Made by a program: the position numbers and the translations under genes
Shown here: positions 206 to 54,934 of the stretch, piece after piece
How the letters are laid out: every line of letters begins with the position of its first letter
How positions within the stretch are numbered: position 1 is the stretch's first letter
The notes under the pieces: generated by a model
Told to the model about the DNA's origin: nothing
The model's input: only the letters and a program-made list of their open reading frames with translations
Database searches by the model: none
Virus record (IMG/VR): IMGVR_UViG_3300049193_000020
Coordinates: 1-58,761 of that record
Strand: one strand, 5' to 3'
Length of the DNA: 58,761 bases
Source of the DNA: a virus
Lineage: Duplodnaviria > Caudoviricetes

Positions 206-490
206 TTATCTACTTATAGTATTGTTATATTTATCACGTGCAGGTATCAAATCTGCATACAGTTCTGCTATTTTAGCTAATATGTTAATGTTATAATCAC
301 TAAGCTCAAATTGGCAGCATGGCTGAATATCAAGTTTAACGCCTGTAGTTGTTGCGTCTAAGTAAAAATTATAAGCATTAGCCGATTCCAAAGCTGTCCT
401 GCGTCGTATGCTATCTGGTACAAAACAAGACGTGTTAGGTATAAATGCTTTTGTATCTATTAATTTGTGGTTAAAATCTTTTACTTTCAT
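206..490 (-). CDS. hypothetical early protein
   Basis: 94-aa ORF with AGGAG SD. Confidence 0.7.
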   Translation of the reverse strand: MKVKDFNHKLIDTKAFIPNTSCFVPDSIRRRTALESANAYNFYLDATTTGVKLDIQPCCQFELSDYNINILAKIAELYADLIPARDKYNNTISR

Positions 491-517
491 AATTTGCGTA
501 CTCCTAAAAAAAGTTAA

Positions 518-730
518 TTATTTACTTGCGCTTTGTGCAAATTGCACACCCTCTAAAAAAGCATATACTTCCGCATAAGTTCCTATATATGCCTTACGTA
601 TTCCACCATTATCATTCTCTTTTGCTACCGCATAACCACCTAACCTACCATCAAGCTGCTTTATCAGGTGATCGGATAAAGTGCTTTTGCATAACTGTTC
701 TAGTTCATTAAGTTTAGTCTTTACGTTCAT
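518..730 (-). CDS. hypothetical early protein
   Basis: 70-aa ORF with GAGGTG SD. Confidence 0.7.
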   Translation of the reverse strand: MNVKTKLNELEQLCKSTLSDHLIKQLDGRLGGYAVAKENDNGGIRKAYIGTYAEVYAFLEGVQFAQSASK

Positions 731-18731: not shown

Positions 18732-19508
18732 ATGATTAGTCCTGATAACCAGACACTTAATGATATTAAAAAACGTGCTGCCGAGTATGATAGATTAGAT
18801 GCGTATTTTGAGGAAACAAAAAACGAATCTATAAAGTGGAATACAGAATATCTTAAATTAATTCAGTCTTATGACAGTCGTTATCTTAAATCAGACATTG
18901 CAACCGCCATGGGGGCTGAGCCAGCATGGAATCTCCATAGAGTAATGCGTATGATGGATGGTGTATATTTTGCCTATACAATCAATATTAATGGAGATAA
19001 GAAAAAGGTTAGATTGCTTACGGTTAAAGAATTTGAATCATTACAATTAGAAACTATGGAGCTAATGGAAAAGCGTCCGTTGTTAAAAGCTATAAATGGT
19101 ATGTATGATATTATGTTACAGCGCAAAGTATTGAGTCTTGCAACCAGTGTATATATACCACGTCAAGATTTAAAAGGGTATGATAATCCTGCATATCGTG
19201 GAATGACTGAAAACGATATAGCCGAGTTACCGCAGGCGCAGTTTGATCGCATGTGGCAAGCTTATTCAATAATTGAGAATACTTATAACTGCTCGCCAGA
19301 TGAAACGTCTGCTGAGGATTTAGAGCGGTTTATTGCTGTAGCTACTGATGAAAAAAAAACTTCAGAGGAAGAAGTGGATCGTTTGTTGACTGGATTAGAT
19401 TTATTTCAATCACAGAAAGTAGCGAAAGGATTTTGGAAGATGATAATCTTACTAAAGGGAAATATACAGTTTGGTACATCATTAGAAGATTCAATAACCG
19501 AAGCTTAG
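18732..19508 (+). CDS. tail assembly chaperone (frameshifted longer form probably ends at 19582)
   Basis: Between tube and tape measure; VRLLTVKE motif; A9 slippery run at 19351-19359. Confidence 0.7.
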   Translation: MISPDNQTLNDIKKRAAEYDRLDAYFEETKNESIKWNTEYLKLIQSYDSRYLKSDIATAMGAEPAWNLHRVMRMMDGVYFAYTININGDKKKVRLLTVKEFESLQLETMELMEKRPLLKAINGMYDIMLQRKVLSLATSVYIPRQDLKGYDNPAYRGMTENDIAELPQAQFDRMWQAYSIIENTYNCSPDETSAEDLERFIAVATDEKKTSEEEVDRLLTGLDLFQSQKVAKGFWKMIILLKGNIQFGTSLEDSITEA

Positions 19509-19583
19509 AGCTTGAGATTAAAGAGGAGCAACAGAAGCAGCAATCTAAAGCCCTACAATCGAAAATCATAAGAAGAAGATAAG

Positions 19584-21602
19584 ATGGTTGATAGCAGCAT
19601 GACAATCAATATAGGTGGAGGTGGCAATTCAGCCTCTACTATGGATAGTAAAGAGATTGTTAATGCTATCAATAAACTAGCAAATAATCAAATCAAAACT
19701 AACTCTTTAATGGAGCGCTTAGTTAATAATATTAAGCAATCCACAGGTGCATCCTCATCTAGTTCAAAAGATATACAAAGACAAATAGATGCAGCATGGA
19801 GATCACATACTAATGGCTCATCAGAAACAACTAAATATCAGCGTCTTAATAGCATGTGGAAAGAAAAGGAAGCTGCTGAACGTAAGTTAGATTCAGAGAT
19901 TGAGGCTAATGCAAAAGAACACGATAAATTACAGTCTGCCCTAGCACGCAAAAGAGCACAAGAGGAAATAGCCACACAGAAAAGAATAACAGCAGAACGC
20001 CTAAAAAATGAAAATGTTATAACCACAGCAAGAAAAAAACATAATGCAGAAGTGTTTCAGCATAATATTAACTATGCAATGGGTATAGGACAACCAAAGA
20101 GTCAAGATTATCAAGGCTTAATATCTCAAATCACAGGAAGTGATAAATCGCCTAATCAGTCATTATTAAGTTTTGCCAACATATCTAAAGTAGCAGGCGC
20201 ATTATCCATAGGTAAAATCCTTACTGATGCAGCCTCAACAGCCGCCTCTCTGTATACTAATTTTGGTCAGGTGGGTACTACAGTAGGGGGAGCTAATCCT
20301 TTTACAAATGGCTATCAATATGGCGGTACTTATGCTAACCTATTAAATTTACAGCAACAGCGTATTAACATAGGTCGAACCCTATCCTACGAAACTAGGG
20401 GTGCTGCATTTGGCAGTCTTATCGGCTCTCGTGCTGGATTAGTAGGAGTTGGTGTAGGCTCAGCAATTGGATATGTTGGTGGCAGAGTAGCAGCAGGCGT
20501 AGTGAATGCGGCTGCAAGCGCACAAACTGAACAACAAGCCTTAGCAAGAAGTATAGCCATCCAAAACAATGTCAATGCTGGTATGTATATGGCAAGTCAT
20601 AGAGGAGGCTATTTACCTGACTATGACACAAGAACAGGCAGCTACTCTAGTGGAGCGACTGATATAGAAAGACCTGCTCAATTAGCCGCTGCCAGAGGTA
20701 TATCCAGATATGGCGGCGTAACATCCAGAATGAACTTAAATAAATATACAGACTTTGCTTTGGCAACGGGCATGAGTCCTGATCAGATACAGGCACTAGC
20801 AGGAAGTCTAACCTTATCTGGTAGGATGGGTGGTAGCAGTAACCTTGATCGGGCAGGTAATATATTTGCAGCTTATAACCTACAGGGCATGGATGCGGTA
20901 AATAGTGCTAACCTAGCTTCTGTTTTGCAGAGCTTAGGCATGCCTAATGCTCAAGAGCAGGCAGCAAGACTACAAACATCAGCACCTAATTGGACATCTG
21001 GGTTTCAATCCTATAATAGTGCAAATCCATTTCAAAGAGGCATACAGAATATTATTCAAAAGAGCTTGACGACTAAACTATTTGGGTTTGGGTTTAGCGA
21101 TTCAGATATAAATAGTAATACTGCCGCTGGTAAAGCTGGATTAAAAATAGTCAATTCAGCTAGAGATAGATTAAATAGGTTTAGAGATTCAGGGGATATA
21201 AGTAAACTAAATCCTACAGACTTAGCATTAAATAGTCTGTTTGCTAATAATAGTAATATTTTAGGTGGTAATATAGAGAATGCTAATACTGGTTTAAGCG
21301 ATTTAAAGAATGTCACTGAGAGCAGTTCTATAATGCCAAGCCAATATCAACAAACAGAAAACGCAGCGGTTAATGCTCAAAATAGGGCGAATGCCGGCGA
21401 TGGTTTTAATATGTCAACAGCTTCATCTAGCTTAAAAGATTTAAGTCAAACAAGTAATATAGCAACTGATAGCTTGAATAGATTAGCCCAGACAGTCGAG
21501 GGTGTAATCCATAGATTATTATCTCTCAATCTAAATAGCAGCAGTAGTGGGATAAGCACATATTCTGGGAGGACTGACTCCGTAATGGGGTCTCGACCCT
21601 AA
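19584..21602 (+). CDS. tape measure protein
   Basis: 672 aa, Ala/Gly/Ser-rich helical protein, GAAFGSLIG..VGSAIG segment, canonical position. Confidence 0.75.
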   Translation: MVDSSMTINIGGGGNSASTMDSKEIVNAINKLANNQIKTNSLMERLVNNIKQSTGASSSSSKDIQRQIDAAWRSHTNGSSETTKYQRLNSMWKEKEAAERKLDSEIEANAKEHDKLQSALARKRAQEEIATQKRITAERLKNENVITTARKKHNAEVFQHNINYAMGIGQPKSQDYQGLISQITGSDKSPNQSLLSFANISKVAGALSIGKILTDAASTAASLYTNFGQVGTTVGGANPFTNGYQYGGTYANLLNLQQQRINIGRTLSYETRGAAFGSLIGSRAGLVGVGVGSAIGYVGGRVAAGVVNAAASAQTEQQALARSIAIQNNVNAGMYMASHRGGYLPDYDTRTGSYSSGATDIERPAQLAAARGISRYGGVTSRMNLNKYTDFALATGMSPDQIQALAGSLTLSGRMGGSSNLDRAGNIFAAYNLQGMDAVNSANLASVLQSLGMPNAQEQAARLQTSAPNWTSGFQSYNSANPFQRGIQNIIQKSLTTKLFGFGFSDSDINSNTAAGKAGLKIVNSARDRLNRFRDSGDISKLNPTDLALNSLFANNSNILGGNIENANTGLSDLKNVTESSSIMPSQYQQTENAAVNAQNRANAGDGFNMSTASSSLKDLSQTSNIATDSLNRLAQTVEGVIHRLLSLNLNSSSSGISTYSGRTDSVMGSRP

Positions 21603-21963
21603 TAATCCAGCACAATGGGATGCATTAATTGATCGCCTAGAACCTTTAGTGGCAAACCGTGAAAGTAGCGGTGGAAAACGGTTATATGGCTATAAAAATG
21701 GTAAAGCTATATCGTTTGGTAGGTATCAAATACGCCCACAAACAGCTAGTAATATTGAGGGATATACAGTAACAGCGGCACAGTTGTTGCATGATAATTT
21801 TAGTAGAAAAGTATTTCATGATATATTATATCAAGATTTACAGTTAGCACATGGCGATATAAAGGGTGCGCTTGCCTGGTATAATGGCGGACATGTTTCA
21901 TATGAAACTTACCGCAAAACAGGACAAAATGAATATGCAGAAAAGGTTTTAGCAGGAATATAA
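21601..21963 (+). CDS. lytic transglycosylase (SLT-like) domain, probably a +1 frameshift extension of the tape measure protein
   Basis: NRESSG (catalytic Glu), FGRYQI, ALAWYNGG motifs; frame open from 21586; annotated GTG 21649 lacks an SD. Confidence 0.75.
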   Translation, partial: NNPAQWDALIDRLEPLVANRESSGGKRLYGYKNGKAISFGRYQIRPQTASNIEGYTVTAAQLLHDNFSRKVFHDILYQDLQLAHGDIKGALAWYNGGHVSYETYRKTGQNEYAEKVLAGI

Positions 21964-21964
21964 T

Positions 21965-23269
21965 ATGGCAGTTAATTTAACTGATTTAGCATTAGCTGAA
22001 TCGGTAGCCAATGATTTAGGAGTTAACACATGGCAGCTATCACAGGGCAGTTATAATGGCACTGTATTTTTTACTTTAAATAGCATTTGGAATAACTTAA
22101 ATCAAAAATATAATCCAGCCGCTGGAGTAGCAACCGCAGTACAGGGTGCTCTGGGCATAGTGCCCGATTCAGATGATTTAGCTAATAATACTAGCCTACC
22201 TTTTGGAACTCATGTAACTTCTACCGGTGTTCGTGATTCTTGCAGTCAGAAATTGTCTATATATAGATTTTTTAATAATGCAAATGGCTATGAATCAGGG
22301 GGATGGAATGGCGAAGTAATGGAAATTGAATGCTTCATTTGGGGAGCATCGTATCAGCAAGCCTTAACTAATATCTTACAAAACTTTAAAAATGATTCAT
22401 ATGTATATCAAACTAATAAAAATGCTTTACATGTATTAGTTCATCCAGTATATGGAACTATCCCGAATGTCTTATTAAGAGATTATAAGGTACTTCATTC
22501 TCCAACCCAATGGCGTTGTGCTAGGGTAGCATTTCTGTTTGAATCTCTATCTCCTGTTTATGCGATTATTAACAAAAACTCCAATATCATTAGTAAGCTA
22601 GACACTATCATTAGTTCTATCTTAACATTGATAACCGATTTAAACCAGGTATGGGGTAGCTATACTGCAATTAATCAGTCATTTACTAGCACCAGTGGCA
22701 CAAGTGGAAATACTAACCAATTGAATCAAAATCTAAAAGCTGCCAGCGAAAGTGTAGTTGATACTACAAATATATGCGTATATCTTACTCAGAAGTTAGT
22801 AAATAATCTAGCCCCAACTGGCTATATCAATACTGTATTAAATAATACTACAGCAACCATTTCTAATACTGTAGGTGGGATATATTTCTTTAGCAGTAAT
22901 CTATCGCCAAATAATGTAAATGCCTTAATGGAGTTCGTCAATGGCATTATTGATATTACTAAAAGCATTATAAATATAACTAATAATATCTTAATTTACG
23001 AAAATATCGCTAATCTAACTTCATTAAATGCTAATATGGCAGAATTATGTAATCAATTATTAAATGCATATTATGGTTCTACTAAAGAATATACAGTGCC
23101 ATTTGATACTAGCTTATTTAATATCTGCATTCAGGAGGGGCTTAATTATACTAATCAAGTAGAAAAAATCATGTTACTCAATCAGGGGGTTTTACAAAGT
23201 GTGGTATATATACCGAAAGATACTAAACTATTACTGCCAGTTAATCAATCTACTTCTGGTGTGCTATGA
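21965..23269 (+). CDS. Mu gpN-like DNA circularisation / tail-tube initiator protein
   Basis: WQLSQGSYNG and LVHPVYG motifs; C-terminal LysM-like YTVP..IMLLN..IPKDTKLLLP. Confidence 0.7.
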   Translation: MAVNLTDLALAESVANDLGVNTWQLSQGSYNGTVFFTLNSIWNNLNQKYNPAAGVATAVQGALGIVPDSDDLANNTSLPFGTHVTSTGVRDSCSQKLSIYRFFNNANGYESGGWNGEVMEIECFIWGASYQQALTNILQNFKNDSYVYQTNKNALHVLVHPVYGTIPNVLLRDYKVLHSPTQWRCARVAFLFESLSPVYAIINKNSNIISKLDTIISSILTLITDLNQVWGSYTAINQSFTSTSGTSGNTNQLNQNLKAASESVVDTTNICVYLTQKLVNNLAPTGYINTVLNNTTATISNTVGGIYFFSSNLSPNNVNALMEFVNGIIDITKSIINITNNILIYENIANLTSLNANMAELCNQLLNAYYGSTKEYTVPFDTSLFNICIQEGLNYTNQVEKIMLLNQGVLQSVVYIPKDTKLLLPVNQSTSGVL

Positions 23270-25020
23270 TAGATAGCAACGTTCTTAATCCAAGCTGGAC
23301 TATAACTATACAGCCACTTATGACTGGTGGCGACGGAAGTGCTAAGGGTAATTACTTATTGCTTACTAATGGCAATTCCCCTGGTAACACCAATGGTACT
23401 ACCAAAATCAATAAAATTATCTTTGATATAAATGGTACGGCTAATACACAAACCATGATTTTACAAAGCGATAATGGAGATGTGTCAGCAAATTATACGC
23501 AAGTTGTATTAGATATGCCGTTAAATATAGATTTTAGTATATTTAATCCGCTATCTACTGCCTCATTAATGTTTAGATTAAAAAATAGCAGTATATCGTA
23601 TAGCGGTGGCTCAGATAATGCACCTAATTTCACTGATCCTATATTAGATATATTTAGGGGTGGTGATATAATGACTATAAGCTTATATAATTCGTTAGCC
23701 CCCAATATTATTCAAACTGTGTTTACAGGTAGAATTGAGCGATCACAAATTATAAGCACCAATCAGGGTACAACCATCCCGATTAGCTTGGGTGGCTATA
23801 GTAATATTTTAGCTCAGAGTATGTTAGTAAATAACAGTGAAGAGCAAAACATACAGGGAACGTTAGCCAATGAAATGTCTCAGCCATTACAGTTAGGTGA
23901 TTTAATTAGTCAATTAGTAGATGAAACCTATTTAGCTACTTTAGGTGTGGGTATAGACTTTTATGGTGGAATTACTAATAGTCAATCAGAGGTTGTATCC
24001 ACTTCTAAAGTATCGGTAGTAAAAGATGCAAATGGTGAAGTTAGCAGCATCTCTGCATCGTCTGGAAGTGCTTTGATATATGATTCATGGTTATTTGTAT
24101 CTACCCCACCAACATCCAATAAAATGCAAACCATATTACAAGCTATATATCCTTATCAGCGCGTGTTTTATGTTGACCTTGTAGGAAGATTAGTAATAAC
24201 TCCATTACAAGCTTATTTTGATTCAGATGAAGCATGGAACTTTGATATAGCAGGATTGGCAACTGATGAAAATGGTAATCTAGATACTACATCGTATGTA
24301 CCTATTATGGGCATGAGCAGATCTAGTAATACAGCAATTATTAGTAATAGAGTATTATGTACATTAGCACAAGCATTGGTACAGTTTAAGCTTGTCAGCG
24401 GCAGTAGCACTAATCAGGCAACTGTACCGCAGAGCATTATTACGCCCCCTAAGGCTTTCTTCCCTCGTGCTTATGAGATGGTCGCTAGTCAGCTTGGTAT
24501 GCAAACAATTATTAATGTACAATCTGTTGATAGTGATAGTATTTGCTATAATGCTGGCTTATTGAATACTATGTTATTTATTAGTCAAGGTAATAGCATT
24601 CCTGGTCTTCAAACACCATACCCCATTGATGGTAATCAAGCATCTTTACAGGTTAAGGGCAGCAATACTGTTTTTGAACCAATAAAATATTGTACTGCTT
24701 CTTATGGCTTGAGATCATTAGCTGAATCACTAAAAGATGATATGCTAATTGAGATTACTATACCAATTAAATATACTTATCTACCATCTAAAAATACCTT
24801 TAGAACTATTCCAATTAATCAGCTTGTAATATTACCACCAACATCTAATAATGTATTTGATGGATTAAGGCAATACTTTTGCTATGGATTTAAAATTCAA
24901 TTAGATAAAGATCAAAATGGCGCTTCATTTCAGTTGTTAACATTACGTCTCTGCAAGCCTTATACTTATACAGGTTTATGGTGTGATAAAATAGAGCTTA
25001 TTGATAGCGCAGATCTATAA
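23266..25020 (+). CDS. baseplate hub protein
   Basis: VFTGRIER and FYVDLVGRLVI motifs; position. Confidence 0.65.
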   Translation: MIDSNVLNPSWTITIQPLMTGGDGSAKGNYLLLTNGNSPGNTNGTTKINKIIFDINGTANTQTMILQSDNGDVSANYTQVVLDMPLNIDFSIFNPLSTASLMFRLKNSSISYSGGSDNAPNFTDPILDIFRGGDIMTISLYNSLAPNIIQTVFTGRIERSQIISTNQGTTIPISLGGYSNILAQSMLVNNSEEQNIQGTLANEMSQPLQLGDLISQLVDETYLATLGVGIDFYGGITNSQSEVVSTSKVSVVKDANGEVSSISASSGSALIYDSWLFVSTPPTSNKMQTILQAIYPYQRVFYVDLVGRLVITPLQAYFDSDEAWNFDIAGLATDENGNLDTTSYVPIMGMSRSSNTAIISNRVLCTLAQALVQFKLVSGSSTNQATVPQSIITPPKAFFPRAYEMVASQLGMQTIINVQSVDSDSICYNAGLLNTMLFISQGNSIPGLQTPYPIDGNQASLQVKGSNTVFEPIKYCTASYGLRSLAESLKDDMLIEITIPIKYTYLPSKNTFRTIPINQLVILPPTSNNVFDGLRQYFCYGFKIQLDKDQNGASFQLLTLRLCKPYTYTGLWCDKIELIDSADL

Positions 25021-32596: not shown

Positions 32597-35587
32597 ATGG
32601 CAACTGGATATACCACTAGCATAGGATATAATAGCATTGGGCAAAATAGCATAAATGGCTTAACTGGTAATATTACTTTTGAAGACAGCAGTACCATTGA
32701 ATGGGATATAAATTCATCTGCTAAATCATTAACACCATCTGTTAAAGCAGGTTTAAATGCTAATTTAATTGCCGATGGCTCAGTAACAAATCAAGATTAC
32801 CAGAATATAGCTGGTTCTAGCGCAAATCTACAATTACAAATAGATGCTTTAGCATCAGGTAGCACACGCTTTCAAGCTAAAGCAATGGCTACTGTCAATG
32901 TTGATATTAGCAATCCAGCCACAGATACATATGATGGTATTACACTAAATAATGGCGATAGCTTATTTTTAAACCCTGTTGATTCAATCCCATCTGGTTA
33001 CCAGACCGCAGCAAGTGATGGCGGTATTTACACTTTTAATGGAATAGGTGTAGCCTTAACCCGTGTATCTAATATGGATGAATGGGATGAGGTAGTGGGA
33101 AGTCAGGTTAATATACTACAAGGTACGTTATGGGCTGGTAGCACCTGGAATAATCTTAATGTAGACGGTGGCACAATTGATGTTACTGATATAACCTACA
33201 AACAAATATTCACTAACCTAATGATAAGCACTATTAATAGTCAGACTAAATCTGCTAATGGCGCTGTAATTGTCGGCGCTAATTTATATATGCAAACCGC
33301 TGACAGCACATATCCTGGATTATTGACATCAACATTTTATGATCTGTTAAATACTGCAACTTACATGAATAGTCCAGAAACTTTGGTAAAGCGTGCTGAG
33401 GATGGCAGTATTACGGTTCAACAACTTGTTGCAGTGCAAGTAAATAATGCTTCTGCTAACGAAATTAATTTTTTATCGGGTGTTACAAGTGCCATACAGA
33501 CGCAATTAGATGCACGTTTGATAGCGGCGAATAATCTTTCTGACTTAGCTGATGCATCTACTGCCCGTGATAATTTAGGGCTTGGCTCTGCTGCTTTATT
33601 AGATGCAGGCACATCTACTAATAATGTAGTGCAATACTCAGCAGCTAATACTATTACTGTTACCAACCTGAATACATCGGCTATTGATAATTCAGGTGGT
33701 GATATAACTATTGGCGCTAATGCTAATAATGTATATATAGGTAACGTTAATGCTGCTATTACAGTGTTAGGTAGCGTTGAAAATGAGCAAGTTACTAATC
33801 TTTTAGTTAAAGACAAACTAATAACTTTAAATGATGGCGGTGGTTCAGCTAGTGGTGCGGGAGCTGGGATAGAAATTGAAGAGAATGGGAGCATAACGGC
33901 ATATTTCAAACAAAATAGTTCCAGGACTGGCTTTATATTAACATCATCTGCTAATGCTGGTTTAATGCAATTATTGGTTGGTGAAACAGCATTTACAGCA
34001 TCTATAAGTAGCTCTAATTTAACCGCTAATCGTACTTATAATTTACCCGACGCTGATGCTACTATGGTACAGCCTAGTAGTGCTGTAAGTAATCAATTCA
34101 TTACCGCTATTAGCGCAGCAGGCGTAATAAGTAGAGCGCAACCATCTTTATCAAATTTAAGTGATGCAAATAGTGTGGTAACCTTAACTGATACACAAAC
34201 TTTGACTAATAAGACTTTAACCACACCTGTATTAAACGGCATACCTAGCGGCACTGGTGTTTCATCATCTGCGACAGCAAATACGCTTGGGCTTAGAGAT
34301 GCCAATGCTAATATGTTTGCAAATAATTTTATTAGTAACGTTACAAGCACTGTTTCATCTGCAAGTCCTGTAACACTTACTGCGGCTTCAGCACGCTACC
34401 AAATTACTACTGGAACGATAGCCCAAACTTATAAAATGCCTAATGCTACGACCTTGCAAACAGGTGCAACTTATTATTTTGACAATGATTCAACTCAAAA
34501 TGTTACTGTTAATGATAATTCAAATACTCTTATTACTACAGTATTACCAGGAGAATTTGTTTTTGTACAAGTTGACAATATTTCTTCTCCAGCAGGTGTA
34601 TGGGATTATCATGGATTATTGCCTAAAGATAGCAATTGGGGTACTGGGATATTAAATGCTATTAATACAACAGCATCATTTGCATCAGGAAAATTTTTAA
34701 CTTTAGTGCAAATTGGAGATACAGATGCTAGTCATTATATGCAGATAAGCTGTGGAAGTAATTTAACTGCTGATCGGCTACTCACTATTACACCTGGTGA
34801 TGTAGCAAGAACAATTACTTTAACAGGAAATCCTACTTTAGCTGATTGGTTTGATCAACCTGTAAAACAGGCAGCAATTCCTGCATTTGCTGGTTTAATC
34901 TCTCCAGCGCTCACAGGTGGCTCAGGCACTACTCAAGCTCTTACTCTAAAAAGTACCTCAGGTGTAGGTACAACTGGAGCAGATATAATATTTCAGGCTG
35001 GTAATAATGGTGCAACAGAAGTTATGCGGCTGTTGAACAGTGGTAATGTAGGCGTAGGCACTACATCATCAACTGGCTTCAGGATGACTATCAGCGGTGG
35101 AGCGCAGGATACCCTTAAAATTGCAAGCACACAAGGCGTATCTCTAAACATACAAAACACCTCAACTGATACAATTCAGCGTATTTATGGCACTAGCGGT
35201 GTAAATTTCTGGGATTTTAGGGCGTCCAGCACTGTTCTTGCTTTTCGCGTAAATGATCAGACCTATATGTCTGTAGGCACTGGGACGAATGCTGATGTTA
35301 ATTTTACTGGTAATATCAATTTTAGCACGCAAGGTAAAAGTATAAGTTATAAAGAGGGTGGTAGTGCTGCTATGGCTGCACTGGCAACATTGTCTAATGG
35401 CACAGTAACAGTTAGTTCAACAAGTGTAACCGCTGCTTCTCGTTTTACCTTAACTTATCAAACCGTATCAGGTACAACAGGTAATCTAAGTATTAGTGCT
35501 CGTAATGTTGGAGCAGATTTTACAATTTCAGGGGGTGGGATTGGTAATAATTCTACAGTATACTGGGAAATGCATAATAACTCATAA
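32597..35587 (+). CDS. long tail fibre / adhesin-like protein
   Basis: 996 aa Ser/Thr/Asn/Gly-rich; NNLSDL..A.ARDNLGLG, TQTLTNKTLTTP, VMRLLNSGNVGVGT fibre motifs. Confidence 0.8.
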   Translation: MATGYTTSIGYNSIGQNSINGLTGNITFEDSSTIEWDINSSAKSLTPSVKAGLNANLIADGSVTNQDYQNIAGSSANLQLQIDALASGSTRFQAKAMATVNVDISNPATDTYDGITLNNGDSLFLNPVDSIPSGYQTAASDGGIYTFNGIGVALTRVSNMDEWDEVVGSQVNILQGTLWAGSTWNNLNVDGGTIDVTDITYKQIFTNLMISTINSQTKSANGAVIVGANLYMQTADSTYPGLLTSTFYDLLNTATYMNSPETLVKRAEDGSITVQQLVAVQVNNASANEINFLSGVTSAIQTQLDARLIAANNLSDLADASTARDNLGLGSAALLDAGTSTNNVVQYSAANTITVTNLNTSAIDNSGGDITIGANANNVYIGNVNAAITVLGSVENEQVTNLLVKDKLITLNDGGGSASGAGAGIEIEENGSITAYFKQNSSRTGFILTSSANAGLMQLLVGETAFTASISSSNLTANRTYNLPDADATMVQPSSAVSNQFITAISAAGVISRAQPSLSNLSDANSVVTLTDTQTLTNKTLTTPVLNGIPSGTGVSSSATANTLGLRDANANMFANNFISNVTSTVSSASPVTLTAASARYQITTGTIAQTYKMPNATTLQTGATYYFDNDSTQNVTVNDNSNTLITTVLPGEFVFVQVDNISSPAGVWDYHGLLPKDSNWGTGILNAINTTASFASGKFLTLVQIGDTDASHYMQISCGSNLTADRLLTITPGDVARTITLTGNPTLADWFDQPVKQAAIPAFAGLISPALTGGSGTTQALTLKSTSGVGTTGADIIFQAGNNGATEVMRLLNSGNVGVGTTSSTGFRMTISGGAQDTLKIASTQGVSLNIQNTSTDTIQRIYGTSGVNFWDFRASSTVLAFRVNDQTYMSVGTGTNADVNFTGNINFSTQGKSISYKEGGSAAMAALATLSNGTVTVSSTSVTAASRFTLTYQTVSGTTGNLSISARNVGADFTISGGGIGNNSTVYWEMHNNS

Positions 35588-54860: not shown

Positions 54861-54934
54861 TGGCAGGGGATGCAAGAATCGAACTTGCGCTACCTGAATC
54901 AAAGTCAGATGTACTACCGTTATACTAATCCCCA
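54861..54934 (-). tRNA. trnQ: tRNA-Gln (TTG)
   Basis: TGGGGATTAGTATAACGGTAGTACATCTGACTTTGATTCAGGTAGCGCAAGTTCGATTCTTGCATCCCCTGCCA: cloverleaf, GTTCGA T-loop, encoded CCA. Confidence 0.92.

Follow-up and report, generated by a model that had tools for sequence, protein, structure and literature searches.

The window analysed here is the whole of the IMG/VR virus record IMGVR_UViG_3300049193_000020, a complete record of 58,761 bp (CheckV completeness 100, 34.6% GC) from a soil phage, pieces of which occur in soil metagenome runs. In its contractile-tail module a putative tape measure gene ends in CGA CCC TAA (21594-21602), and this end overlaps, in the +1 frame, an open stretch that codes for a predicted lytic transglycosylase domain of the SLT type (Table 1). 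An earlier reading of the letters alone (hereafter the original prediction) had proposed that a +1 shift of the ribosome at CCC-TAA would fuse the transglycosylase onto the tape measure protein. We re-examined the locus by sequence, profile and structure comparison. The 50,697 deposited phage records searched by blastn and tblastn contain neither a DNA nor a protein match to the window.

Table 1. Features around the end of the tape measure gene (positions in the window).
Feature	Position	Strand	Basis or remark
Putative tape measure protein ORF P0001, zero frame, 672 aa	19584..21602	+	Position in module; last sense codon CCC
+1-frame open stretch P0002, 125 codons, stop to stop	21586..21963	+	phrog_2013, 22 HMMER matches
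Proposed +1 shift site CCC TAA T	21597..21603	+	Heptamer identical to SPP1 gene 17.1 end
Tandem zero-frame stops TAA TAA	21600..21605	+	Read from sequence; second TAA 21603-21605
First helix of predicted SLT fold, P0002 residues 8-27	21607..21666	+	AlphaFold2 model; ends in E26-S27
GTG, called start of 104-aa P0004	21649..21651	+	Without Shine-Dalgarno-like tetramer upstream
Baseplate hub-like protein, 434 aa	21965..23269	+	phrog_184 E 1.1e-9; ATG 1 nt after SLT stop

The overlap of the tape measure and transglycosylase frames

The 672-aa open reading frame (ORF), P0001, sits in the tape measure slot, between the tube and chaperone genes and the baseplate hub gene of the module. It matches no Pfam or PHROG tape measure profile. 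Its translation shows a Gly/Ala-rich hydrophobic segment, and its language-model (Atlas) feature scores to tape measure clusters are 0.91-0.92, which we take as a lead only. From its position in the module, its length, its composition with the hydrophobic segment and these feature scores, P0001 is probably the phage's tape measure protein.

In the +1 frame a TAA at 21583-21585 is followed by an open stretch that runs from 21586 up to TAA at 21961-21963 and overlaps the zero frame by just 17 nt (21586-21602). Its translation (P0002) reads WGLDPNNPAQWDALIDRLEPLVANRESSGG...GRYQI...WYNGG. At the composition of the window, 125 stop-free codons in a row would arise by chance with P ~7e-5, while the 21 codons upstream of the called GTG start, taken alone, are not significant (P ~0.20). 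If CCCT is read as one step, translation passes from the zero frame into this stretch with the junction ...MGSRP/NNPAQW, and 21598-21960 encodes 120 residues added after P672, giving a product of 792 aa; the predicted junction peptide spans ...MGSRPNNPAQWDALIDR. No ATG, GTG or TTG is found in the +1 frame from 21586 to the GTG at 21649, which is residue 22 of P0002 and lies four codons before the catalytic Glu. In all of this the coordinates and letters are as the original prediction had described them, from the ORF end and the +1 frame open into an SLT-like domain to the GTG as the only alternative start.

The heptamer at the junction, CCCTAAT, is identical to the end of gene 17.1 of phage SPP1 in X97918.2 (2010-2016 of the sequence compared), where gene 17.1* is annotated across the site. 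Among the 586 Pro codons of the window, CCC is used 51 times (8.7%) and CCT 259 times (44%). In P0001 itself CCC occurs once among 12 Pro codons, as the final codon, and 1 of the 72 mechanical ORFs of the window ends in CCC-stop. The original prediction had asked for the reads to be mapped in order to exclude an indel error, and this check was run on assembled contigs instead of raw reads. A public run index lists nine soil metagenome runs, from nine studies, that hold part of 19000-24000, and we compared the window with Logan contigs of four runs other than the likely source, which are short and of low depth (2.7-4.2). Contigs from three of these runs, each of a different study, span 21586-21602 (X2, 21291-21659; X4, 21544-21694; X5, 21463-21613), each with 0 other letters and 0 gaps; the contigs of the fourth (X3) do not reach the junction. 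In the wider stretch 21000-22400, 17 of 17 contig pieces from the four runs, which belong to four different studies, have 0 differences, and the same 672-aa and 104-aa proteins were each found on 2 contigs. Because three contigs from independent runs cover the junction without differences, the junction is not an assembly error.

The transglycosylase domain and its relatives

P0002 matches phrog_2013, annotated as 'lytic tail protein' (E 9.6e-6), and the Pfam SLT profile (PF01464) with 14.1 bits (E 0.035), which is below the gathering cut-off of 21.3. The 125 residues translated from stop to stop were modelled with AlphaFold2 on the basis of 18 homologues, at a mean pLDDT (per-residue confidence) of 95 and a pTM (overall fold confidence) of 0.88. 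The solved lytic transglycosylases to which this model aligns include Slt70 of E. coli, Slt of P. aeruginosa, MltC, MltE and T7 gp16. Foldseek gave a probability of 1.00 at an E of only 0.011, and a sequence search of PDB chains gave 0 matches at E up to 1. Structural alignments of the model to Slt70, P. aeruginosa Slt and MltC cover 110-113 residues with Z of 11.5-11.7 (11.7 for Slt) and a root-mean-square deviation of 2.4-2.6 Å. In the alignment to 5ohu (P. aeruginosa Slt), residues 10..125 pair with 487..619, so that E26 falls on E503 provided that the helix has no gap; E503 is exchanged in the entries titled 'inactive mutant E503Q' (such as 6fc4). E26 (21661-21663) is followed by S27, and the Glu is nearly invariant in a 19-sequence alignment. 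These results point to an SLT-fold lytic transglycosylase domain with a Glu-Ser catalytic motif, for which cleavage of peptidoglycan is predicted.

The coding status of the 21 codons upstream of the GTG can be judged by four lines of comparison. In the model, 14 of the 20 residues of the first helix lie upstream of the GTG, in keeping with the claim of the original prediction that a start there would remove the helix preceding the Glu. Slt70, P. aeruginosa Slt and MltC are matched structurally from model residues 8-10 onwards, and the VIA alignments begin at residues 7-13 in most of the 50 rows listed. By sequence, the motif W-D-x-x-I-D-x-L-x-P before the Glu is common to P0002, P0021, P0006 and P0017 in a MAFFT alignment, and in 3 of the 22 matches (P0021, P0006 and P0009) the phmmer local alignments reach query residue 7 or 11. 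The sub-threshold Pfam match pairs residue 22 with profile position 20, leaving 19 profile positions for the upstream stretch. Because the predicted helix, the structural alignments, the phmmer and MAFFT homology and the profile position agree, the 21 codons are, as judged by homology and by the model, real coding sequence of the SLT domain, and GTG 21649 is probably an internal Val codon.

The HMMER search of P0002 across 1.84 billion representatives gave 22 matches, one of which is the ORF of a sister phage described below. Fifteen of the 22 are proteins of 513-609 aa with the SLT domain at about residues 336-536. When 11 of the 22 were scanned against PHROG profiles, the N-terminal 250-350 residues of 10 matched tape measure families (among them phrog_2276, 8125 and 9570, with E as low as 8e-40), and these 10 matched phrog_2013 as well; the eleventh (P0008, 271 aa) matched only lysin families. 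By these profile matches, the SLT subfamily of P0002 is normally an in-frame part of tape measure proteins. The literature is in line with this for P1 Sit, which a passage of PMC9024508 describes as a tape measure protein with SLT at about residues 750-900, and for tape measure-borne, virion-associated lysins in general, as outlined in part of PMC6116005. The proteins of PHROG 2013/2276 (P0006-P0024) and P1 Sit resemble the window in that a homologous SLT domain (E 4e-14 to 7e-5, 31-49% identity in the HMMER matches) is joined to a tape measure protein. They differ in layout: in P0006-P0024 the SLT domain is in frame and internal and is followed by a conserved 60-100-aa tail, whereas in the window it lies in the +1 frame after TAA TAA and is terminal, without such a tail. 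The tail of the fusion family carries the pattern N-x-x-L-P-x-V-x-x-P-x-x-F ... F-S-x-G-x-x-A, which is absent from the window product.

A search of 5.8 billion clustered proteins found one relative for each of the two ORFs, and the two are encoded by a single contig of 54.5 kb from another assembly. The tape measure protein of this sister phage (P0003) has 675 aa and is 47% identical to P0001 (328/702 columns). The two proteins end in TYSGRTDSTMGSRP (P0003) and TYSGRTDSVMGSRP (P0001), both with ...MGSRP as the last residues. This C-terminal match of 13/14 is one of four such islands along the alignment (22/689 windows), and the 40 columns that precede it have 15 identities. The SLT ORF of the relative (P0005, 93 aa) is 73% identical and thus better conserved than its tape measure protein. 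Its called start aligns to residue 34 of P0002, eight residues past the catalytic Glu and 12 codons beyond the GTG. Because the SLT part is 73% and the tape measure part 47% identical, we infer purifying selection on the SLT domain since the split of the two phages; on this protein comparison the split arrangement is old and maintained, and the GTG is not a conserved start. As annotated, P0005 is without the catalytic Glu and would be an inactive fragment, a sign that split calls of this kind hide recoding.

Further searches extended neither family. Four scans of viral contigs by protein or alignment found nothing related. The sole IMG/VR 'relative' of the SLT domain (L001, 3944-4366) was rejected as spurious, its 140-aa ORF sharing only LYGYKNGK with P0002, without Glu-Ser or WYNGG. 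In metagenome contigs, the back-translated pattern of the most conserved tape measure peptide retrieved 4 stretches, none matching the tape measure or SLT protein by tblastn. The pattern of the C-terminal tape measure peptide retrieved 0 stretches in viral contigs and 0 in genome contigs, and among 769 candidates for shorter tape measure fragments none scored.

Proposed frameshifting at CCC-TAA and its alternatives

We consider it likely that a programmed +1 frameshift yields a 792-aa tape measure-SLT protein beside the 672-aa tape measure protein. According to this proposal, most ribosomes would stop at the TAA of CCC TAA and release the 672-aa form. In a fraction of them, with the stop codon still in the A site, the peptidyl-tRNA-Pro would leave the rare CCC and re-pair with CCU, the common codon that overlaps it. 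AAT would be decoded next (AAT AAT CCA ...), and translation in the +1 frame would run for 120 more residues to give a tape measure protein with a C-terminal lytic transglycosylase domain. Peptides that end in Pro are released slowly, and this would favour slipping at ...Arg-Pro-stop. Assembled alongside the ordinary form in the tail lumen or hub, the long form would exit with it on infection and cleave peptidoglycan locally. The purpose, as the original prediction had it, may be a sub-stoichiometric dose of the enzyme. The slipping itself, its rate, the entry of the long form into the virion and its role there are inferred.

A close precedent is the major tail protein pair gp17.1/gp17.1* of Bacillus phage SPP1. 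A passage of the SPP1 genome paper, PMC6316719, states that ribosomes pause at the rare CCC and shift to the frequent CCU in CCCUAA, and that the products occur at 3:1 in tails. The window has the same heptamer at the end of a tail structural gene, with a rare CCC that overlaps a common CCU, and in both cases some copies of a virion protein gain, or are proposed to gain, an extra domain at the C-terminus through the shift. The SPP1 case concerns a tube protein with an FN3/Ig-like decoration at a reported 3:1, while that of the window concerns a putative tape measure protein and a predicted SLT enzyme in a contractile tail. A part of the Atkins review, PMC5009743, gives a +1 shift at CCC_UGA for the tail shaft gene tsh of Listeria phages PSA, A118 and A500, and 15% shifting at CCC_UGA for E. 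coli pheL. These share with the window a Pro CCC in the P site beside a stop and a low-GC setting in which CCC is rare; in them the stop is UGA where the window has UAA, and the gene and the added domain differ too. Of the known CCC-stop cases named in the original prediction, those of SPP1 and of the Listeria tail genes stand, and that of the Listeria capsid does not, the PSA capsid site being ACA_CCC_UCC with a pseudoknot in the same part of PMC5009743. Systems of the lambda gpG/gpGT type (PMC5009743, in part) resemble the window in that recoding in the tail module sets the ratio of a short to a long form, and are unlike the proposal in that the shift is -1, lies in a chaperone gene and gives products outside the virion. 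The frameshift mechanism is known, and so is the combination of tape measure protein and lysin; a search of literature full text, with most subscription journals outside its scope, found no report of a frameshift in a tape measure gene or of a frameshift-appended lysin, so that the union of both in a tape measure gene was not encountered there; the original prediction knew of no such arrangement on a tape measure gene.

Several points weigh against a programmed shift at this site. Only two lineages are present in the collections searched, and the conservation of the site in the relative was compared at protein level only. The C-terminus of P0001 may also be conserved for docking to the hub instead of for shifting. 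A stimulatory RNA structure was not found in the three stretches folded around and downstream of the site (z of -0.22, +0.47 and +0.18 versus shuffles). A Shine-Dalgarno (SD) stimulator of the prfB kind is ruled out on spacing, there being none 3 nt upstream and the GGGG at 21587-21590 being 6 nt from CCC. The identity of P0001 as a tape measure protein rests on gene order, composition and length, and P0001 has no detectable homology to the tape measure parts of the in-frame fusion family (hhalign probability 0.65%). Tape measure proteins form many unrelated families. The missing SD before the GTG is a further case: no SD-like tetramer occurs at -18..-4 of GTG 21649, as the original prediction had said, yet 38 of the 72 mechanical ORFs have an SD-like motif by a loose rule (24 by a strict rule), and since the other 34 are without one by the loose rule its absence is weak evidence, a weaker argument than had been claimed. 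In addition, an ATT at 21628 with GGGA 7 nt upstream could in principle begin a shorter protein. The core of the original prediction, a +1 shift at CCC-TAA by which the tape measure protein gains the SLT domain, is otherwise backed by every computational test run. We lean, though only slightly, towards the wider claim that the shift is conserved and programmed, with a fixed minority of the tape measure copies of the contractile tail carrying SLT and few wall-cutting domains per virion.

Among the alternatives, the one that survives best makes the SLT domain a separate small protein, translated from GTG 21649, from ATT 21628 or by re-initiation after TAA 21600, with the upstream homology surviving from a former fusion. 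The GTG is the start that gene callers selected (P0004), and besides the GGGA before the ATT it can be said for this explanation that the genes are tightly packed and about half of them without an SD-like motif, so that coupling or leaderless-like starts may be common. A start at the GTG would nevertheless cost the Glu-bearing helix 14 of its 20 residues, and one at the ATT would cost it 7, including the conserved Trp. The upstream stretch keeps the family motif at a pLDDT of 96, which is unexpected for untranslated DNA at 34.6% GC. In the relative a different start, past the Glu, was called in place of the GTG, and in the 15 matches of 513-609 aa the domain is an in-frame part of a fusion (10 of 11 in the PHROG scans). 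On this evidence a separate small protein is unlikely.

An old one-base insertion could instead have broken an in-frame tape measure-SLT fusion and left a dead remnant, in which case CCC-TAA would be coincidental. In-frame fusions being the common form, and no stimulatory structure having been found, such an origin is conceivable. It is at odds with the 125 stop-free codons (P ~7e-5), with an SLT domain kept by the relative at 73% identity against 47% for the tape measure protein, with the catalytic Glu-Ser and the confident, complete fold that are kept, and with the same tape measure end in both lineages; we hold it to be quite improbable. The same fusion might also be reached by another recoding route, through a neighbouring codon in 21586-21602, a -2 shift or a short hop, since any change to the +1 phase within these 17 nt gives it. 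As CCC_UAA_U alone within the overlap corresponds to a proven +1 site and the homopolymer runs are all too short for transcriptional slippage, a different route is very unlikely. Finally, although the record is a metagenome assembly, there is hardly any chance that a simple in-frame fusion was split by an indel from assembly or sequencing, given contigs from three other runs and studies that cover the site without difference, though at depth 2.7-4.2, and a relative just 47% identical that ends at the same residue; an indel common to all of these is not credible.

The tail module and the meaning of the proposed frameshift-appended lysin

The late genes of the window are all on the + strand and begin with a large terminase (phrog_38, E 8e-55) and a portal, then several unassigned head or neck genes. 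Downstream of these come a sheath-like 752-aa ORF, a 154-aa ORF, a 258-aa ORF, the 672-aa tape measure ORF, the SLT ORF and the baseplate hub gene. The Atlas model of the 752-aa ORF resembles tail sheath proteins (TM by row 0.59-0.83; clusters with PF04984/PF17482). The hub-like protein also has a weak match to PF07157 DNA_circ_N (E 0.011, below the cut-off), and gp46-like and Baseplate_J proteins are encoded downstream of it. We take this gene order to be that of a Mu/P2-like contractile tail module.

Directly 5' of the tape measure gene, the 258-aa ORF (18732..19508) contains the in-phase heptamer A_AAG_GGA at 19454-19460. From there the -1 frame is open to TAA 19580-19582, ending 1 nt before the tape measure ATG, so that a -1 shift would give a product of ~283 aa versus 258 aa, with an extension past the zero-frame stop of only ~25 codons. 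By its position and letters this looks like the usual -1 chaperone frameshift of the gpG/gpGT type. If it is real, adjacent genes of the module would hold a -1 and a +1 shift, as in SPP1.

Two other features of the window were recorded. A tRNA-Gln (UUG) gene at 54861-54934 (-) is its sole tRNA gene, and there is none for tRNA-Pro. A 996-aa protein encoded at 32597-35587 (+) combines a head-decoration-like segment (phrog_2647, residues 77-214) with a polysaccharide deacetylase-like C-terminal part (phrog_24355, residues 898-994), and from these matches a tail fibre or spike that carries an enzyme for modifying sugars is possible.

For annotation, the case matters through the truncated 'orphan' SLT ORFs that were called both here (104 aa) and in the relative (93 aa); further cases may lie behind split calls of this kind downstream of other tape measure genes. 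For the virion, a limit on the number of enzyme domains may matter physically, as three or more folded 13-kDa domains may not fit into the tail lumen. The rate of slipping at CCC-stop depends on the supply of tRNA-Pro and release factor, and the share of armed tape measure proteins could therefore track the state of the host cell. If the proposal is true, it would add the first described case of recoding in a tape measure gene and the first of a virion lysin supplied through a frameshift, and phages would use recoding also to control the number of enzyme domains that ride inside the tail.

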